From NCBI RefSeq assembly GCF_017348835.2, contig NZ_CP071375.1: 64,000 bases of DNA; one strand, written 5' to 3'. Below are positions 13,847-22,944 of the stretch, one piece after another (positions within the stretch are counted from its first letter, which is position 1; each line of letters opens with the position of its first letter). Position numbers and translations under genes: made by a program. The notes below the pieces were generated by a model. It was not told where the DNA came from. It was given only the letters and a program-made list of their open reading frames with translations, and made no database searches. The DNA comes from Escherichia coli. Lineage in GTDB: Bacteria; Pseudomonadota; Gammaproteobacteria; Enterobacterales; Enterobacteriaceae.

Positions 13847-14060
13847 ACCTGCACTCCAATTATTGACCAGTTCCTCACCGCGCCTCCCTCTCCGGCGGCG
13901 CGAATGAACATCTTATTGGTTATCACATCCGACACAAATGTTGCCATTCCATTGCTTAATCGAATAAAAATCAGGCTACATGGGTGCTAAATCTTTAACG
14001 ATAACGCCATTGAGGCTGGTCATGGTGCTCATAAATCTGGTATACTTACCTTTACACATT

Positions 14061-14423
14061 GGGGCTGATTCTGGATTCGACGGGATTTGCGAAACCCAAG
14101 GTGCATGCCGAGGGGCGGTTGGCCTCGTAAAAAGCCGCAAAAAATAGTCGCAAACGACGAAAACTACGCTTTAGCAGCTTAATAACCTGCTTAGAGCCCT
14201 CTCTCCCTAGCCTCCGCTCTTAGGACGGGGATCAAGAGAGGTCAAACCCAAAAGAGATCGCGTGGAAGCCCTGCCTGGGGTTGAAGCGTTAAAACTTAAT
14301 CAGGCTAGTTTGTTAGTGGCGTGTCCGTCCGCAGCTGGCAAGCGAATGTAAAGACTGACTAAGCATGTAGTACCGAGGACGTAGGAATTTCGGACGCGGG
14401 TTCAACTCCCGCCAGCTCCACCA
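14061..14423 (+). ncRNA. ssrA: tmRNA (SsrA), 363 nt, ending in CCA
   Basis: Starts GGGGCTGATTCTGGATTCGACGGG, contains tag-reading-frame region and tRNA-like 3' end GGTTCAACTCCCGCCAGCTCCACCA. Confidence 0.97.
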
Positions 14424-14550
14424 ATCATGATTGGACGGTGTAAGGACAACACCAACAAAAACAGGAAGTTAGCAGTCTCAGCAGGACACCGACCAGACGG
14501 TGAGGAGACAAAAAAGGATACGCAAAGGAGCCGCGGCTCCTGGCGACATG

Positions 14551-14575
14551 AAAGCCCACAGATGTGGGCTTTTTC
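14551..14575 (+). terminator. Intrinsic terminator downstream of ssrA, just past the ypjA stop
   Basis: GCCCAC-AGAT-GTGGGC hairpin followed by TTTTT. Confidence 0.6.
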
Positions 14576-14583
14576 GTTGATGG

Positions 14584-17500
14584 TCAGAACGACCAGTTCA
14601 CACCAGCCACCGCGTTCCACGGGGATTCCACATCGGCACCGTTGCTATACCCCACCCCGAGATGCCCGCTTAACGTACTGCTGAATGAGGCTTTAATACC
14701 TGCCTGGTATATTCCACGTCTGCCCGACAAATCATTGACGAAATTACCGTCATTATTCACCTTCACCCGGTTATCATCGACAAATTCTTTGCGCACAGCC
14801 GCCTTCAGCCACGGCTCAACTTCCATACCGTTCCCCAGACGCATGTTGTAACTCAGCGTTGCACCCAGTTCACGATATATACTGCGGGTATCGACTGATT
14901 TCGATTCCATGCCATTGGATAAATGATATTCGGGGTTATCAGCGGTGAACCCCGTTAACGATGCATACGGCGTCAGGTTCCAGTTACCATCAGTAAATCG
15001 CATCCCGGTTTCAATGTGACCGCCCAGCCCGTTGCTGTGGTAACTGCCATTGGCGGCTCCACCGCTGCTCATTTTACCGGCTACGTTACTTTCAAAACGG
15101 TTCAGCTTCACGACACCGTCCAGATAGAAACCACTTTCATGTTCCCAACTGGCATAGCCGCCCAGAGAATAACTGCCCACACTGCCATGTCCTCCGCGAT
15201 CAAAACCGATATGTGAATGGGAATAACCCATAAAAGCGCCCAGCGTCGCAATCCCCTCAGGAATATCATTACGGCTGTCGATCCCCACTGTCATTCCGGT
15301 CAGCGTCTGCTCAAACCCGGCCCCCGCATCGGTGGTGACATTATTACGGGTGTTATACGTCGCCCCCCAGACATTATTGTTGTGTGAACTCGCTTTCATT
15401 ATGTTCAACCGCTCGCGAATACTGTTTAGCTCAGCATCAAATACCAACGGTAATGTTGCTGCCATATTGAGTACGGCTGCGGTAGAAGGCGTGATGCGTT
15501 TCTCCGGAACGGGTGTCGGCGTTGGCTCGGGAGTCGGGTCTGGTTTCGGATCCGGTTTTGGGTCTGGTTTTGGATCCGGCTTCGGATTTGGGTTGGGATT
15601 TGGGTTGGGATCCGGGTTGGGTTTGACATCATTGGTCAGGTTCCAGTTGCTGTTGCCATCGCTTTTCAGGACATACTCATAGGTCCCAAGATCAACGAAA
15701 CCGCCAGTATTGCCCAGCGAAAACGAAGCATCCCCTCCCCCTGTTTTCACCAGCGTCATCGCGTCGTCAGACTGAGGACTGACGCCGGTATCCTGAACAA
15801 AGATTTTAAAATTACCAGTGGCGTTGTTGCTGACGACCAGTTGATCACCGCGGGAGCCAGCAACGTTGGTATGCAGGTAGAAATTACCGCTACCGGAAAG
15901 TTCATTGGTTGTCAGCGTATTGTAGATACCGTTAGTTGTGGCAGGCGCTGCTGTTTGTGCTGATAAATAAACATCACCGTCGTTGAGTAGCAAACTGTTT
16001 ACTCTATATTCGCAGTTGCTGGTACCTGCACAGGAATTATTGCTGTTAAGCCAGACACTGCCCCGGCTGGCAGCCATCAGGTCGGCAAGCGTTGTATCGA
16101 CGCCATTTCCCAGAGTTAATGCCGCGCTATCGGTAATCCGGACCGCCCCTACGAGTTTAACTGGCGTAACATTATCCCGTGGCGTCATTAACGACAGGCT
16201 TCCTGTCGCGCCACTGACCGATGCATCCGCCAGCGTACCTGCGTAGACGATTGCCGTACCGCCAGCGACCTGGAGATCTTCTGCCCGGGCCAGAGCCTGA
16301 AACTCATCTTTTGACCGCCCAAGGGTATATTGCCCGCCAGAGTTAACCTTTGTAGCGGAGTCCTGACCCAGGTTTTGCATTGCACCACCCTTGCCAACCG
16401 TGGAGTAGCGAGCTTCGGTACCTGCTAATACCAATAAATTACCACCATTTTCCAGCAACATATTGGTCGCTAAATTTCCGGCAATGGAAAAGGTGCCGTA
16501 CTGGTGAGTACCGCTGATTTCAATACCGTTAGCTGTGCTCGTCTGGAGAGCGGCACCGCTGTTCTGGACGATATCTGTCGCTTTGCCATTATCATTGACT
16601 GTCAGCGTACCGCCTTCATTTATCGTTGTTTTTATTGCCTCACCGTTAGCCGAAACTGTTTGTATTCCGCCGTCGTTAATCGTTGTCTCATTCGCCACAC
16701 CCTCGACGATTTGTTCGCCGCCGGTGAGCGTCGTGCCTGTCGCAGTGGCTTTTATTTTGACGATCTCCCGTCCGCCCGTATTGACCTGTGTTTTGGCGGA
16801 AGTGGTGTCTGACTCCACGGTTAACACGCCGCCATTTGCCAGCAGGATATTGTTCGCCGCATCCTGCTCGATGCTGAACACGACGCCATCTGCGCGTGTC
16901 CCTGTGACACGCGTCGCCTTGGTGGTTGCAACCAACGCGCCCTGGCTACTCTGCTGTATCCCCGTTGCGCTGCCTTTCTCCCGCACATCGAGTGTGCCGC
17001 CGTCATTAAGCACCGAGTTTTCAGCCAGACCGCCCTCATTAACTACCTGTGAACCGCCATTAATAATGGAACCTTCCGCTGTCCCGTTTGCCATAATTTG
17101 TTGTAGGCCAGAGACGATATCGGTGTTGATTGCCTTACCATAACTCTGAACGGTTTGCGTGCCACCATTGATGTGTGTTTTATCTGTTGACCCACCATCA
17201 ACAATTTGTTCACCACTTTCGAAATTTGCCTCAGTGGCTAAACCATATACCGTTTGCTTGCCACCTTTGATATTTGCTTTATCAGAAGTGGCACTGGCAT
17301 ATATTGTTTGGGTGCCCGCACTATTAAGTACAGTGCCAACATCTTTTCCATAAACATCCATTTTGCCGTTGACATTAATAATCGTATCAACTGCCCGGGA
17401 ACCAGTGACGACTGTTAATGAGCCAGCGTTTTCCAGCACTACATTTTTAGCTTCTGAATTCCTGATGTAGAAAGCATCACCATAACTGTTGGTTCCTTCG

Positions 17501-19170
17501 ATAAGTGTTCCGGAAGTCGTGGAAGCAATTAATGCGCCGCCGGATTGTTGCTCAACATGCTTAGCCTCACCACCGTCCTGAACCTCCAGAACGCCGCCAT
17601 GATTAAGTCTGGTGGTATCTGTTTTGGCCTCCTTCTGGACAATCAGCTTACCGCCAGCATCAATGGTAGTATTTTTCGCCGAGGTTTTAGCCACTACCGT
17701 CAATTCGCCGGTATTTTCCAGCACAACATAATTAGCCTCCCCTCCGGTAATAGTGAAGTGAGAGAGCTTGTTGTATCCTTCGATATCAGTCCCTGCGCCC
17801 GTGTTGGCAACTAAAGCACTGCCCGTCTCCTGGTTAACCCCATGTGCAATACCGCCGGTATAGACAATCAGCGAGCCTCCGGCGCTAATATTGCTGCCAG
17901 TTGCCGTACCATCTTTCTCAACAACCTGGCGGCTCCCAGAGGAGATATTCGTCGTGTCAGCTTTCCCGCCGCTCTTGATATTTTGCGTTCCACTGTTGAT
18001 ATTGGTGCCCGTGGCAATACCATGATTATTAATATTCTGTGTGCCACCATTAATTATGGTATTTGTCGCGTTTCCGGCAACATCCATAACCCCGCCATTA
18101 TCTATTCGGGTAGCATCAGCTTTAGCATTCGTTAAAACTGACATTGTTCCTTTATCTTTAATAATCGTCTTGTTTGCCGAACCATATGCGTTTATGTCTA
18201 AATGACCACCGTGTTCCAGCAACACATTGTCTGCAACGTGATTGTGGATGGAGAATGCCCCTTCACTATTCGTACCGCTCACCGTCGTACCGTTAGTGTT
18301 TGTTTTTAAAATTGCACCATCGTGCTGGGTAACATTTGTTGCCGTACCACCACTAACATCAAGCACGCCACCGGAATAAACTTCAATAACATCCGAGGTG
18401 CTGGTGTTATCAACAATTTGCGTGCCACCAGCATAGATCTGCGTATTTTTTGCCGTTGACTTACTATTCAGAGACTGAGTTCCGCCTTCAATCGTGTTGT
18501 TCAGCGCACGGCTCTCATATACTCTTTGCTCACCGCCATTTTTAATGGTGGTTGTTTCTACTGTGCTCTGTTCAACATACTGTCGACCACCATTTATGGT
18601 TGTGTTCGTTGCCAGACTTCCTTGCGTGATGTCCTGAGAGCCAGACTTATTTATCGTTGTACTGTCGACATGCCCCTGAGTTGTTACTCGTTGGCTGCCA
18701 CCATCAATGATTGTTCCATTCGCAGTCCCCCCACTTATGTGTGAATTACCCCCCTTAATTGTCGTTCCATTGCTGATACCACCTGTATAAACGTCCTGAT
18801 TGCCACTCTCGATTATTGTACCTGTGGAAATACCCCCGTCATGAATTGTCTGTCTGCCCCCGTTAATGGTTGTATTATTAGACTGCCCCACATAATTGTT
18901 ATGCCTTGCTACATCTTGATATCCACCAGATTCAATAAGACTTCCATTAGATATCCCACCATAAACATTCTGCTGGCCATGGTTGATAATATGAGTGTTA
19001 TTTGTTGTACCTCGTTCATCTACTCTTTGGGTGCCATCTACAGTCTCATCGTTTACCACACCAATAACATCAGGAGTGAAGGCCGCCATCCCGGGCGGGG
19101 CATATATCAAGGCAGATATCAATAAGGAAAGTACTGAGCGGCGACAATAATGGGGACTGGTCCTGTTCAT
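14584..19170 (-). CDS. ypjA: Large autotransporter adhesin-like protein (YpjA family): signal peptide, long repetitive passenger, Pro-rich linker, C-terminal beta-barrel
   Basis: ORF 14584-19299; start placed at MNRTSPHYCRRSVLSLLISALIYAPPGMAAF (signal peptide) giving about 1528 aa; passenger built of about 19-aa Gly/Thr/Asn-rich repeats; barrel ends ...NWSF. Confidence 0.85.
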   Translation of the reverse strand: MNRTSPHYCRRSVLSLLISALIYAPPGMAAFTPDVIGVVNDETVDGTQRVDERGTTNNTHIINHGQQNVYGGISNGSLIESGGYQDVARHNNYVGQSNNTTINGGRQTIHDGGISTGTIIESGNQDVYTGGISNGTTIKGGNSHISGGTANGTIIDGGSQRVTTQGHVDSTTINKSGSQDITQGSLATNTTINGGRQYVEQSTVETTTIKNGGEQRVYESRALNNTIEGGTQSLNSKSTAKNTQIYAGGTQIVDNTSTSDVIEVYSGGVLDVSGGTATNVTQHDGAILKTNTNGTTVSGTNSEGAFSIHNHVADNVLLEHGGHLDINAYGSANKTIIKDKGTMSVLTNAKADATRIDNGGVMDVAGNATNTIINGGTQNINNHGIATGTNINSGTQNIKSGGKADTTNISSGSRQVVEKDGTATGSNISAGGSLIVYTGGIAHGVNQETGSALVANTGAGTDIEGYNKLSHFTITGGEANYVVLENTGELTVVAKTSAKNTTIDAGGKLIVQKEAKTDTTRLNHGGVLEVQDGGEAKHVEQQSGGALIASTTSGTLIEGTNSYGDAFYIRNSEAKNVVLENAGSLTVVTGSRAVDTIINVNGKMDVYGKDVGTVLNSAGTQTIYASATSDKANIKGGKQTVYGLATEANFESGEQIVDGGSTDKTHINGGTQTVQSYGKAINTDIVSGLQQIMANGTAEGSIINGGSQVVNEGGLAENSVLNDGGTLDVREKGSATGIQQSSQGALVATTKATRVTGTRADGVVFSIEQDAANNILLANGGVLTVESDTTSAKTQVNTGGREIVKIKATATGTTLTGGEQIVEGVANETTINDGGIQTVSANGEAIKTTINEGGTLTVNDNGKATDIVQNSGAALQTSTANGIEISGTHQYGTFSIAGNLATNMLLENGGNLLVLAGTEARYSTVGKGGAMQNLGQDSATKVNSGGQYTLGRSKDEFQALARAEDLQVAGGTAIVYAGTLADASVSGATGSLSLMTPRDNVTPVKLVGAVRITDSAALTLGNGVDTTLADLMAASRGSVWLNSNNSCAGTSNCEYRVNSLLLNDGDVYLSAQTAAPATTNGIYNTLTTNELSGSGNFYLHTNVAGSRGDQLVVSNNATGNFKIFVQDTGVSPQSDDAMTLVKTGGGDASFSLGNTGGFVDLGTYEYVLKSDGNSNWNLTNDVKPNPDPNPNPNPNPKPDPKPDPKPDPKPDPTPEPTPTPVPEKRITPSTAAVLNMAATLPLVFDAELNSIRERLNIMKASSHNNNVWGATYNTRNNVTTDAGAGFEQTLTGMTVGIDSRNDIPEGIATLGAFMGYSHSHIGFDRGGHGSVGSYSLGGYASWEHESGFYLDGVVKLNRFESNVAGKMSSGGAANGSYHSNGLGGHIETGMRFTDGNWNLTPYASLTGFTADNPEYHLSNGMESKSVDTRSIYRELGATLSYNMRLGNGMEVEPWLKAAVRKEFVDDNRVKVNNDGNFVNDLSGRRGIYQAGIKASFSSTLSGHLGVGYSNGADVESPWNAVAGVNWSF
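15527..15631 (-). repeat. In-frame tandem hexanucleotide repeat tract inside ypjA encoding a (Pro-Asn/Asp/Lys)n linker
   Basis: DNA shows repeating ggatccggttttgggtctggtttt... units; translation PNPDPNPNPNPKPDPKPDPKPDPKPDPTPEPTPTP. Confidence 0.75.
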
Positions 19171-19552
19171 AAATTTCATCCTCTGAAAAGTGAATACTGA
19201 GTAGCGTTTAAGCAACCTTAGCTCTGCTGCAACATCAGCCCACAGGCACCAGACCAGGGGATTCATCCTGAAGAGACAGCGCAAGTGTATTGTGTTCACC
19301 GCTCATCAAAGACATCATGATGAAATGATGATATTCCGCATAAGAATGAGTCATTTTTTAAACGCAGTGCGCTGAAGTGTGGTTGGATAAAAAAGTCAAT
19401 CTATTCAGGAAACACGGGCGTATTCTTTTCTTTCGACATTCAGGCAGTCGGCAAAATAAAATGATTTACATAATCGTTTCTGATGAATATCTTCTGCTCA
19501 CATAAAAATCACACAATAACTTTGATATCGCAGATTGTTTTACTTCTACAGC

Positions 19553-19745
19553 ATTCGTCCCCCCATTGTTGGGGAAATATAGATTGGGCCAGAGCTCGAA
19601 AGTTAATACCACGTTTGCACAACTCCTCCAACAGCACGACAAGATGCCACATACTGCGCACCAGTCGGTTCAGTTTACAGACTAGCAGTGCGTACCCTGC
19701 CGATAATGTCCTGAGCAGTTTTTTCAGTCCGGACCTCCTGCCACG
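19553..19745 (-). pseudogene. pinH: Internal fragment of a Pin/Hin/Gin-family serine DNA invertase (remnant, no start, no catalytic N-terminus, no HTH)
   Basis: Minus-strand translation RRSGLKKLLRTLSAGYALLVCKLNRLVRSMWHLVVLLEELCKRGINFRALAQSI aligns with the invertase core ...[45 protein letters not shown]; flanked by stop codons. Confidence 0.6.
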
Positions 19746-20104
19746 GTTTTACGTTGAAGAGGTAACCCTGAGCACGCAGTTCTTCAGTCAGGCGTGGTGC
19801 ACCGTAACGCTGTTATTGCTGGGTAAGATCAAAAAACTTTCAGGCAGCTAAGGAAAGTTGAACCAGACATTAGATGAAATATTTCAACCAATTACAGCAC
19901 TAATTCAACACCGCCAGATCGCCAAATAAATCAAGGGGTTACGTGAAAGTGCAGCCCCTTTTTCTTTGGTAGTGACAGCAAAATGGATGTAGTGTGAAGA
20001 ATAATCCCGTTTAATCAATCAATAATACATATTGTTTCAATCTACGTTATTATCTCTTTGTAAAAATTGCCATTTATTCATCATTGAAAACTGCTTTTAG
20101 AACT

Positions 20105-21559
20105 TTATACAATAGAACTATTCACAACAGGACTATTCTCAACAGGATCATCCTCAGAGGAACTATCATCAAAGTCATCATCCATAAATAAAATATCATC
20201 GAATGGTGCCACGCCCGTGATTAGTTTTATTTTATTATTACGATCAGACAAGACTCCATTTAAACCGTTTTCGCTGACGGATTTTAATAATTTCTCATAA
20301 CTCTTATTGTCATCAGGCACATTAAAAATACACGGTGCATCAACATCAAACAATGAAGTTCTCCAATTCACATTTTTAATATCATAGTTACGGAAGTTCT
20401 GTCCAGAAAAGAAGCATCCCTTAAAATCCAACCCACCTAAATTATATAAACCACCCTCTCCTTTTTGTAGAGTAATATTAATTCTGGCTATCTCCCGGAC
20501 AAAACTTCCTTTTTTATATTTGAATACCGTTTCAAGATTTTCCCCAGACAGCTTGACTTCTGGGAATAATTTGAAATTAAACCCTACATCATTATTATTC
20601 AAAGTAGATGAACGGAAGATGGAAAAAGCTTGCAGCGCTGAATTATAGCTTTCGATTTTATCTTGAGGCTGCGCTCTTGGTAAAAATATATAGCAGCACT
20701 CATAAAAATTGAATAAACGTTCTGATGAATTTCCATTTTTATCAAATAATATCCCCCGGAACTCCTTCACAAAGGCATCCGTTATTTTTTGAATATCTAT
20801 GGTGTGTTCCTTTGACTCTGACAAAGATGGAGCCTGTTGAAGTGCATTGCTCATCTGGTTAAGGAACATCTGCATTTCTTTCAATTTATCTCCATAGTGG
20901 CCTTTAACTTGCTGAGAGTTTTTAGTTACAGGTGAAACCTTATCTATTTGGTTGTCATATAAATTACGTGGTTCCATAGAGACATTTGGTTGCGTTTCTA
21001 AAATAACACTACGCGTACTACCTGGCTTTAATGAATCAACATGAAACTCACTTTTTCTTATATTGCCGAATAGGGTCTGTTCATCTCTCTTAGCGGATTG
21101 AAAAAAATGATCAACATTATTTTTATTCGATGACAGGTCAGTTTCAGAAACCGCATTTTCTTTGTTCTCCAGCTTTAGTTTAATGAGAAGATCTTCCCAG
21201 ACCTGCTTGCTTAAACATACTACGTCAGGCTCACCATCAGTAACTAACTCTTCATTATTATCAAAGTATACGTTGAATACTTTTAAGTTATTTTCATCAA
21301 CATCATATTTAATACGTTTTAATTGCTCTCCAGATCCCATAATGACAAAGGCGTTGCCTTCATGATATATACATTCAGACATCATTTTTTGTAAAGTTTC
21401 AAGAGCACCGCGATACGTCGCTGAGGCAGCTTCCTTACAAATTAATTTTATAATACTATGAGCTAGTAGCTCCATGGGGTTGGAAGAATTGTTTCCATTA
21501 CAATTCCTGCTAGCAAAAAATGCGCTAGTGTTAAGTTCGTTGCTTTTACTAACTAACAT
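20105..21559 (-). CDS. Hypothetical 484-aa protein of unknown function (probably the YpjC family), low-GC gene with C-terminal pentapeptide-like repeats and acidic tail
   Basis: Long ORF in very AT-rich DNA; residues about 395-430 read LDFKG-CFFSG-QNFRN-YDIKN-VNWRT-SLFDV (x-D/N-hydrophobic-x-x periodicity); C-terminus DDDFDDSSSEDDPVENS; no signal peptide or TM evident. Confidence 0.6.
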   Translation of the reverse strand: MLVSKSNELNTSAFFASRNCNGNNSSNPMELLAHSIIKLICKEAASATYRGALETLQKMMSECIYHEGNAFVIMGSGEQLKRIKYDVDENNLKVFNVYFDNNEELVTDGEPDVVCLSKQVWEDLLIKLKLENKENAVSETDLSSNKNNVDHFFQSAKRDEQTLFGNIRKSEFHVDSLKPGSTRSVILETQPNVSMEPRNLYDNQIDKVSPVTKNSQQVKGHYGDKLKEMQMFLNQMSNALQQAPSLSESKEHTIDIQKITDAFVKEFRGILFDKNGNSSERLFNFYECCYIFLPRAQPQDKIESYNSALQAFSIFRSSTLNNNDVGFNFKLFPEVKLSGENLETVFKYKKGSFVREIARINITLQKGEGGLYNLGGLDFKGCFFSGQNFRNYDIKNVNWRTSLFDVDAPCIFNVPDDNKSYEKLLKSVSENGLNGVLSDRNNKIKLITGVAPFDDILFMDDDFDDSSSEDDPVENSPVVNSSIV

Positions 21560-22073
21560 TGTCTATTCCTCAATTAATGTCTACATGGCTATTTTTAATG
21601 TTATTACTGTTTGTCACTATAAAAATCGCTCATTTGAGACAATTGCTGACATTAACTGTTTCACATGCTACGCATGGAACTTTTAATTAAATTAGCACAG
21701 GAATGTTAAATTTAATAAACAAAAGGTTATTTCGCTGTATGATAAAAACCACCCGTTATAATTTATTAGTGAAATTCGTTTTTCGAGTGTTAGAAATTTA
21801 TATCTAAATAGCGTTGATTAATGAGAAATGCCAGACTCCTGTAACGCTCATAAGACTCATCTGCCTGCGACGGGTGTTCTGGTCAGTAGTAGATGTTTAA
21901 GGCGTGCCAGAGACATTTCATACTTACTCTACGGCATTGTTCTACATACATTGGTTGTGGTACTCACTCATCATCAGTGAGCGAACAGAGAATAGTTCAG
22001 TGATTTGAGTAATTAACCTGATTAAATGAAGGGGTATAATAAATGATAATACTCTGGCTTTATCGTTAATTAC

Positions 22074-22300
22074 TTAATTCCACATGTAAGCAATTTGCCC
22101 GCTTGGCATAGCGAGCATTTTTTCCAGGTACTTTTGAATGAGTACTGATGGATAAATACATTGCAGTGGCGTGCCACGTACCAAAACACCAGCCCTCATT
22201 CGAAACCACCCACCGCACTTCTTCCTTGAAATGGCGTTAGTCATGAAATATAGACCGCCATCGAGTACCCCTTGTACCCTTAACTCTTCCTGATACATGA
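22074..22300 (-). pseudogene. Possible degraded N-terminal stub of a P4-family tyrosine integrase immediately 3' of ileY
   Basis: Minus-strand translation ...VLDGGLYFMTNAISRKKCGGWFRMRAG... resembles the integrase N-terminal motif ...LADGGGLYL...GSKYWRMKYR...; short, stops at 22074; weak similarity. Confidence 0.35.
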
Positions 22301-22308
22301 ATGATGAT

Positions 22309-22384
22309 TTGGTGGCCCTTGCTGGACTTGAACCAGCGACCAGGCGATTATGAGTCGCCTGCTCTAACCACTGAGCTAAAGGGC
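22309..22384 (-). tRNA. ileY: tRNA-Ile (anticodon CAU, lysidine-modified, AUA-reading)
   Basis: Minus strand reads GGCCCTTTAGCTCAGTGG...CGACTCATAATCG...GGTTCAAGTCCAGCAAGGGCCACCA; cloverleaf with CAT anticodon. Confidence 0.92.
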
Positions 22385-22944
22385 CTTGAGTGTGCAATAA
22401 CAATACTTATAAACCACGCAATAAACATGATGATCATATGATGTAAATAACAGATTTTTATGCGTTCTCATTCATCCTTGCTCGTCATTACACGCGACAT
22501 AAAACCCGACACCGCCTCTATTCGCAAAGTCGATACTCGCAGTCAACAAGCAAATGTTAATAATTAACACTATCTATAGTTATCATCGATTCAATGATAC
22601 TTTGTAATGATTTTGTATCTAATAATATAACTTTATTACATTAGCTGAAGAGTTTTCGCATCATTATGATATCTGTTACTTTTCACGCCATAAAAATAAA
22701 CTTCATATAGCAATATATTCTTTCATAGATCTTATTCTGCTAATCATTAGTTTCGTATGAGCGATTTTTGACAGTTGCCTCTCCAGACCACATCGATAAT
22801 TAAAAAAACAGATTTAAGCATTATCCTTTTCCATATAAATATTGGATAAAAGTAGGACATCTGTTTGCAATTACTTTCACAACAATTAAACATTTTTATG
22901 TTTCCATATACACCATATTACTCTACCATTAGAGGAACTTTATT

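Follow-up and report, generated by a model that had tools for sequence, protein, structure and literature searches.

We analysed a window of 64,000 nucleotides (nt) of Escherichia coli DNA (contig NZ_CP071375.1), and the locus at issue is the interval 19171-22400, between the autotransporter gene ypjA and the tRNA gene ileY. By database DNA match, this interval is 100% identical to E. coli PE164. The RefSeq gene order in PE164 is smpB, ssrA, ypjA (autotransporter), a 39-codon open reading frame (ORF), a recombinase-family pseudogene without both ends, a gene for a DUF5507 protein, tRNA-Ile, an alpha-amylase-family gene (ygaQ), glaH (csiD), lhgO, gabD, and gabT. The locus is already known, as the pinH pseudogene, the ypjCB family, and ileY are annotated in K-12, and the region overall is ordinary and mostly known. 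A first-pass annotation took the interval for an old element that had integrated at ileY and eroded around a surviving cargo gene, its P4-type integrase reduced to a stub immediately 3′ of the tRNA gene. The features that bear on this proposal, and on the larger accessory block delimited here, are as follows.

14575..25333, no strand assigned: the whole accessory block, 10,759 base pairs (bp), guanine-plus-cytosine (GC) content 0.425; homology to genomes with an empty site ends at 14574 and resumes at 25334
14584..19170, minus strand: ypjA, adhesin-like autotransporter (YpjA/EhaD), left part of the block (PE164 RefSeq annotation and ORF)
19578..19745, minus strand: pinH′, internal fragment of a phage-type serine DNA invertase (profile, BLAST, RefSeq)
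19732..19826, minus strand: ~95 bp left over from an IS3-family transposase gene, directly next to the pin fragment; peptide RYGAPRLTEELRAQGYLFNVK
20105..21559, minus strand: ypjCB, 484 amino acids (aa), intact, no internal stop (NCBIfam NF050179, Pfam); Pfam domains DUF5507 at residues 1-160 (E=1e-80) and DUF5508 at residues 234-484 (E=2e-137)
22310..22385, minus strand: ileY, tRNA-Ile2, anticodon CAU (ARAGORN)
22945..25197, plus strand: ygaQ, alpha-amylase-family glycosyl hydrolase, 750 aa, intact, right part of the block (ORF and RefSeq)

The tRNA gene, the one large intact ORF (now identified as ypjCB), and the Pin/Hin-type invertase fragment had all been recognized correctly in the first-pass annotation, which also described the DNA between ypjA and ileY as AT-rich. 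It is, with a GC content of 0.379 in the interval versus 0.50-0.52 in the flanks. However, low GC is not confined there. The low-GC stretch runs from 19831 to 25333 (GC 0.364); it extends to either side of ileY, takes in ygaQ, and ends some 95 bp short of glaH. The DNA is accessory, and its composition is foreign.

The limits of the accessory DNA follow from genomes in which the site is empty. In E. coli Ecol_AZ159, glaH lies 683 bp after ssrA. Homology of this genome to the window stops at 14574, just past the terminator hairpin of ssrA and 10 nt short of the stop codon of ypjA. It picks up at 25334, which leaves 95 bp to the ATG of the glaH frame at 25428; the window lacks the 333 bp that this genome has between these two points. 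ssrA also adjoins glaH in Escherichia sp. E1V33 and in E. whittamii, and the entire 683-bp spacer of Ecol_AZ159 is colinear with both (91% and 84%, respectively). Thus, the variable unit is 14575-25333, which replaces an ancestral spacer, with ypjA, the pin scrap, the IS3 scrap, ypjCB, ileY, and ygaQ standing in place of 333 bp of the ssrA-glaH spacer. Because homology breaks at 14574/14575 and 25333/25334, ileY and ygaQ lie inside the variable block, and ileY is not the island border that it had been taken for. It is cargo within the block, a second copy of tRNA-Ile2. The comparison of the ssrA-to-csiD interval proposed along with the first-pass annotation does uncover a variable block, but one whose borders are on the ssrA and glaH sides, and no intact invertase was present at the locus in the nine E. 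coli genomes inspected.

The presence of the block was surveyed by searching 21800-26500 against 5426 complete E. coli genomes. Coverage of this segment is at least 80% in 3104 of them, and about 9 of 40 evenly spaced records match only from 25334 onward, i.e., in the glaH part. Roughly one in five E. coli genomes and two sister species lack the block, and no trace of it was found upstream of glaH in Salmonella, Citrobacter, or Pseudocitrobacter. In E. albertii, ileY, the stub region, and ygaQ are present, and the genes farther upstream are unrelated to those of the window. Since the cargo before glaH differs across Escherichia lineages, the ssrA-glaH interval appears to be a genus-wide Escherichia hot spot with lineage-specific cargo.

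The upstream side of ileY in E. albertii NBRC 107761 (L043 1-6600) holds low-GC genes different from those of the window. They encode a 362-aa protein that combines PPPVPxRPSKS repeats with a ‘GDGNCLYH’ motif like that of OTU proteases, two orphan proteins of 395 and 222 aa, and a paralogue of the type B ribosomal protein L31; the gene set looks like effector-type cargo. Among the genes just upstream of glaH in further Escherichia lineages (L044 1-1700, L045 1-2500), there is a fimbrial-adhesin-like gene in one and a gene for a 271-aa ankyrin-repeat protein in another.

Our best explanation, which we regard as likely, is that the interval forms the central part of a fossil mosaic block (14575-25333) in the ssrA-glaH hot spot and not an element integrated at ileY. 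In the order of events that we infer, a phage invertase of the tail-fibre type would have been cut off by an IS3 insertion, leaving an inert fragment beside 95 bp of IS3. The block would be immobile now, with no part able to move. It carries ileY along, the 3′ 47 nt of which are used in a minority of strains by an island with a 438-aa integrase. ypjCB would be the only possibly active gene, being low in GC, fast-evolving, restricted to E. coli/Shigella, intact here, and broken in many lineages. Of the element first proposed, the accessory nature, the eroded pin gene, and the intact cargo ORF are retained, and the IS3 scrap, overlooked at that time, is added; integration at ileY is not retained. 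The block is like tRNA-associated islands with P4-type integrases (CP4-57 at ssrA; the ileX/ileY island of AMSCJX03 and IGC_RcoliRes) in its foreign composition, its variable presence, its position next to ssrA, and in holding a tRNA gene that other islands target. In contrast to those islands, it is without an integrase and without flanking att repeats, and its tRNA gene is internal.

The invertase fragment pinH′ comprises 56 codons and spans residues ~42-94; the N-terminus with the catalytic serine and the C-terminal DNA-binding part are gone. It matches PHROG 125 ‘DNA invertase’ (E=9e-15, profile positions 61-114 of 254) and residues 42-94 of a P2-like phage invertase (66% identity, E=3e-21), and in DNA sequence it shares 84% identity with the invertase genes found in P2/Mu-like phages. 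With the Pin/Gin/Cin/Hin invertases of PHROG 125, it shares catalytic-domain residues 42-94. Unlike these enzymes, it has only about 56 codons and no invertible segment nearby, and it cannot work. RefSeq labels it a recombinase pseudogene with both ends missing, and stops lie on either side. The annotated ends are identical or within 9 nt in all nine of the E. coli genomes inspected, which dates the decay to before the divergence of these genomes; the truncation seems to be fixed across E. coli lineages. At the DNA level, the adjacent IS3 remnant is 85-90% identical to transposase genes of IS3 that more than 1400 plasmids carry, and its peptide gives only weak hidden Markov model matches (PHROG, NCBIfam). 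An IS3 insertion and a subsequent deletion would likely be the simplest cause of the pinH′ truncation.

ileY is a paralogue of ileX, from which it differs at 3 of 76 positions, one of these being a compensated acceptor-stem pair. It is a genuine attachment site elsewhere and is empty in the window. In four IMG/VR loci (L019, L020, L023, and L032), homology to the window is lost at 22356, inside ileY, and a 47-nt partial tRNA 3′ end lies ~195 bp from a divergent 438-aa tyrosine integrase (PHROG 1, E=1.5e-45). The attachment core of this integrase island is the 3′ 47 nt of ileY (22310-22356; 9205-9252 in L032, also in L038 and L121). The junction of integrase, partial tRNA, and stub occurs in 82 complete E. 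coli genomes, and AMSCJX03 has the island in the normal chromosomal ygaQ...ypjCB context. The island inserts between the tRNA gene and the stub; the stub, ypjCB, and pin stay outside as flank. The same integrase is also found at ileX, e.g., in LWY24. In IGC_RcoliRes_1.1 (NZ_CP054662.1; L038, L120), the far end of the island is at ileX, by mug and rpoD, and the integrase end abuts the ileY flank, which indicates a large chromosomal inversion between the tRNA-Ile2 loci.

The partial tRNA copy of the island is an ileX/ileY chimera. Islands of the ileY type carry inovirus Gp2-like genes and variable cargo, examples of which are a two-partner-secretion haemagglutinin and glycosyltransferase clusters.

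The att remnants suggested by the first-pass annotation could not be found. The ileY 3′ end has no second copy in the window (sought as a 25-mer and a 16-mer with up to 3 mismatches), and looking for repeats of any kind across 13900-25500 gave no att candidates beyond chance. An exact ileY-specific 41-mer had no match in 100,044 species-representative genomes; the E. coli representative is evidently without the block, and the E. albertii copy differs.

The case for integration at ileY had been built on a peptide beside the tRNA gene that looked like the start of a P4-family integrase.

22075..22270, minus strand: the supposed integrase-like stub; the string ‘VLDGGLYFMTNAISRKKCGGWFRMRAGV...’ is present, with no sign of a coding remnant

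By eye, the stub shows L-DGG-LY...W-R-R and later YP, but every profile, BLAST, and evolutionary test of it was negative. Pfam gave nothing even at E≤10, and PHROG and NCBIfam gave nothing at E≤1; of the two profile matches anticipated for the locus, that to resolvases is significant and that to integrases is absent. In BLASTP, IntA of CP4-57 matched at E=4.6, and the 438-aa integrase that does use ileY matched at E=1.6. A tblastn search of 50,697 phage records yielded noise only, and among 5.8 billion proteins this same E. coli ORF was recovered alone, with no integrase. In P4-type integrases, such a motif usually stands near residue 20-30. Here it starts ~45 nt from the tRNA end, and therefore the N-terminus would overlap the tRNA gene. 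In E. albertii, the first ~100 nt after the tRNA gene, which hold ‘LDGGLY’, have 23- and 13-nt indels, and the frame is broken. The rest of the stub is well conserved there, with 11 nonsynonymous versus 2 synonymous differences in the proposed frame; it is thus not evolving like a coding remnant. Most likely, the stub does not code for protein; it coincides in part with a conserved element, rich in hairpins, on the strand of ileY, and the integrase reading of it is a by-eye motif without statistical or evolutionary support.

The ORF between the pin fragment and the stub belongs to a narrow family. YpjCB scores 937.7 bits against NCBIfam NF050179 ‘YpjCB family’ (cut-off 650), and its relatives, 426 matches in the 5.8-billion-protein collection and 40 among 1.84 billion cluster representatives, all belong to this one E. 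coli/Shigella family, as members or as fragments. Thousands of contigs have full-length alleles of 484-491 aa. The alleles are mosaic, with in-frame indels in the central linker, and identity to K-12 is 85-89% within ypjCB versus 96-99% in the flanks. Synonymous divergence (dS) between three intact alleles is 0.19-0.34, well above typical E. coli core-gene values. For the same alleles, the ratio of nonsynonymous to synonymous divergence (dN/dS) is 0.5 overall, 0.7-1.0 in the N-terminal part, and 0.27-0.35 in the C-terminal domain, the last value indicating weak purifying selection on that domain. The gene is intact in PE164, O157:H7, and WP4 and broken in six of nine genomes checked (K-12, LWY24, ATCC 8739, O104:H4, IGC_RcoliRes, and AMSCJX03). 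ypjCB is a real gene where it is intact, and it is often lost.

That an old element integrated at ileY by means of a P4-type integrase, which then decayed to the stub while an invertase shrank to the pin fragment and ypjCB survived as cargo, is in our judgment very unlikely. The stub is just 3′ of the tRNA gene and on its strand, as in P4-type islands, and its motifs can be picked out by eye. ileY does serve as a true attachment site in 82 genomes, newer arrivals often displace older remnants to positions downstream of a tRNA gene, and the composition is foreign. Against this stand the missing profile matches of the stub and its BLASTP values, the position of the motif too near the tRNA end, the indels and the 11 to 2 substitution pattern relative to E. 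albertii, and the lack of an att repeat, with borders at ssrA and glaH instead of ileY. It is likewise unlikely that the block was ancestral to Escherichia and was deleted wherever it is missing (some E. coli, E. whittamii, E1V33), the locus then being core DNA in decay. The presence of ileY, the stub region, and ygaQ upstream of glaH in E. albertii would agree with such a history, as would the IS-mediated partial deletions seen in H17/L003 and in E. coli W and B (PMC3032704). However, the 333-bp spacer, which is common to the empty-site genomes of three species and is not in the window, could not be created by plain deletion. The right part of the block, at GC 0.36 against flanks of 0.50-0.52, is also not what decaying core DNA would show, and neither the absence of any trace upstream of glaH in Salmonella, Citrobacter, and Pseudocitrobacter nor the other cargo at the same place in other Escherichia lineages fits an ancestral block.

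A further alternative concerns ypjCB, which might be no real gene in any lineage but a chance long ORF in AT-rich junk, open here by luck. It is a pseudogene in six of nine genomes and has no homologues outside E. coli/Shigella, its full-length AlphaFold2 (AF2) model has a predicted local distance difference test score (pLDDT) of 37.5, and dN/dS in its N-terminal half is near 1. But an open frame of 1455 nt is very unlikely in stop-rich DNA of 35% GC, and the C-terminal dN/dS of 0.27-0.35 among the three intact alleles is obtained at a dS of 0.12-0.33. The indels between intact alleles are in frame, full-length alleles stand on thousands of contigs, and the C-terminal domain is modelled at pLDDT 70-89 over ~150 residues. 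On this evidence, we hold a chance ORF to be quite unlikely.

The mosaic-block reading, too, has observations to contend with. Part of the block is old, as ileY, the stub region, and ygaQ are present in E. albertii, and loss in some lineages is not fully separable from gain or from transfer by flank recombination. The GC content of ypjA is ordinary (0.495), which makes the block composite, and its parts may have arrived separately. As regards the route of arrival, no copy of the ssrA 3′ end flanks the block as an att repeat (up to 3 mismatches, in the window). The frequencies taken from evenly spaced records are rough, and the functional proposal for YpjCB given below draws on just one model of medium confidence (pLDDT 63) and two Foldseek matches.

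The conserved DNA that underlies the supposed stub deserves attention in its own right.

22068..22205, minus strand: three-hairpin element of ~140 nt on the ileY strand, ~105 nt past the tRNA 3′ end (fold and conservation; core 22056-22215)
22205-22132, 22117-22096, and 22095-22068, minus strand: the hairpins (predicted fold)

On the minus strand, the minimum free energy of the element is -55.8 kcal/mol (z=-3.3; the plus strand gives z=-1.0), and in E. albertii the same fold is predicted at -55.2 kcal/mol. Its core, 22056-22215, is the best-conserved part of the locus, being 99.2% identical to K-12 and at least 95% identical in all 3092 of the 3092 genomes that have it; it is single-copy and unannotated. 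In E. albertii, it is ~90% identical, and the adjoining tRNA-side spacer is scrambled. Pairing is kept in 7 of 7 substitutions between E. coli and E. albertii at paired positions of hairpins 1 and 2 and in 8 of 9 variants within E. coli. Thirteen pairs vary on one side and stay paired, and none shows a two-sided compensatory change. A random-substitution simulation gave P=0.035, in a test that is biased, as the structure was derived from E. coli. The element has no match in Rfam. A small RNA on the plus strand, with promoter-like sequence at 22013-22040 and terminator-like sequence at 22101-22123, was considered and rejected, since it folds like shuffled sequences (z=0.05). The three-hairpin element is a candidate structured RNA, which may be a tRNA 3′-trailer RNA or a separate small RNA.

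As for YpjCB itself, the full-length AF2 model was discarded for its low pLDDT. The model of the C-terminal domain has a pLDDT of 63, with 70-89 over its residues 10-160, and comprises three helices, a three-stranded sheet, and short periodic strands. YpjCB residues ~365-412 follow a 5-residue period, D/N and then F/L/I/W. A Foldseek search of AFDB50 with this pLDDT-63 model returned, after YpjCB itself, two ‘pentapeptide repeat-containing’ proteins (E=6e-6 and 1.7e-4). No Pfam Pentapeptide match was obtained, and the PDB gave nothing by sequence, by profile, or (significantly) by fold. The pentapeptide-repeat class includes secreted type III effectors, e.g., Salmonella PipB/PipB2. Features in which YpjCB may resemble this class are its 5-residue period, its polar and variable N-terminus, and the low GC content of its gene. 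PADLOC had no match for YpjCB. With low confidence, and guessing from the model, we suggest that YpjCB might be an effector-like or conflict-type protein with a short pentapeptide-repeat β-helix.

Some other leads on this protein were discarded. A match to Pfam CTD4 (ABC-3C; E=0.0015) falls in the variable linker and is unreliable. The E. albertii genes at the same place showed no similarity to ypjCB. IMG/VR loci with ypjCB, which could pass for phages carrying the gene, are ordinary E. coli chromosome clipped by prophage prediction. A literature search on ypjC, ypjB, and DUF5507 found no functional study. H-NS sites and RpoD promoters have been reported in the ypjC/ileY and ileY/ygaQ spacers (PMC3946193), and ypjC is bound and induced by Hha (PMC2408971).

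The K-12 ypjA-pinH-ypjB/ypjC-ileY-ygaQ region matches the window in locus, gene order, and the ends of the pin fragment, with a DNA identity of 85-99% depending on the segment. In contrast to the window, K-12 has a ypjCB with an internal stop and a 105-nt deletion (annotated as a pseudogene), a broken ygaQ (likewise a pseudogene), and the prophage CP4-57 between ssrA and ypjA. ssrA is a well-known integration target, of which CP4-57 in K-12 is an example. In the window (14424-14583), ypjA begins 160 bp past ssrA, without a CP4-57-type prophage between them. In IGC_RcoliRes, the region beyond ypjA that is normally the ssrA side contains a P4-like satellite; it encodes a DUF1837 protein and a helicase, which may be a defence pair. 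On the other side of the block, glaH (csiD; window 25428-26510) is frameshifted according to the annotation of the near-identical PE164. The DNA between ypjA and the pin fragment has a paralogous counterpart elsewhere.

19200..19558, no strand assigned: ypjA upstream region, ~88% DNA identity to the ymgJ/autotransporter locus (annotation)
19235-19354, minus strand: 39-codon annotated ORF within it (‘ATPase’ or hypothetical; RefSeq)

In many genomes, the DNA upstream of a second autotransporter gene beside ymgJ is 87-88% identical to this region. Such likeness suggests duplicated regulatory DNA that may serve paralogous adhesins.

Our analysis is chiefly corrective. The true unit is a 10.8-kb block that has replaced spacer DNA in the ssrA-glaH hot spot and includes ileY among its cargo, not an island that entered at ileY. 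There is little to gain from the island itself, and the side leads are the hairpin element and YpjCB. It is possible, though we hold it to be the less probable outcome, that the locus harbours either a structured RNA after ileY, or a working, fast-diversifying, E. coli-specific YpjCB of the effector or conflict type, or both. YpjCB offers a lead as an E. coli-restricted orphan that is intact here and in O157:H7 and dead in K-12.

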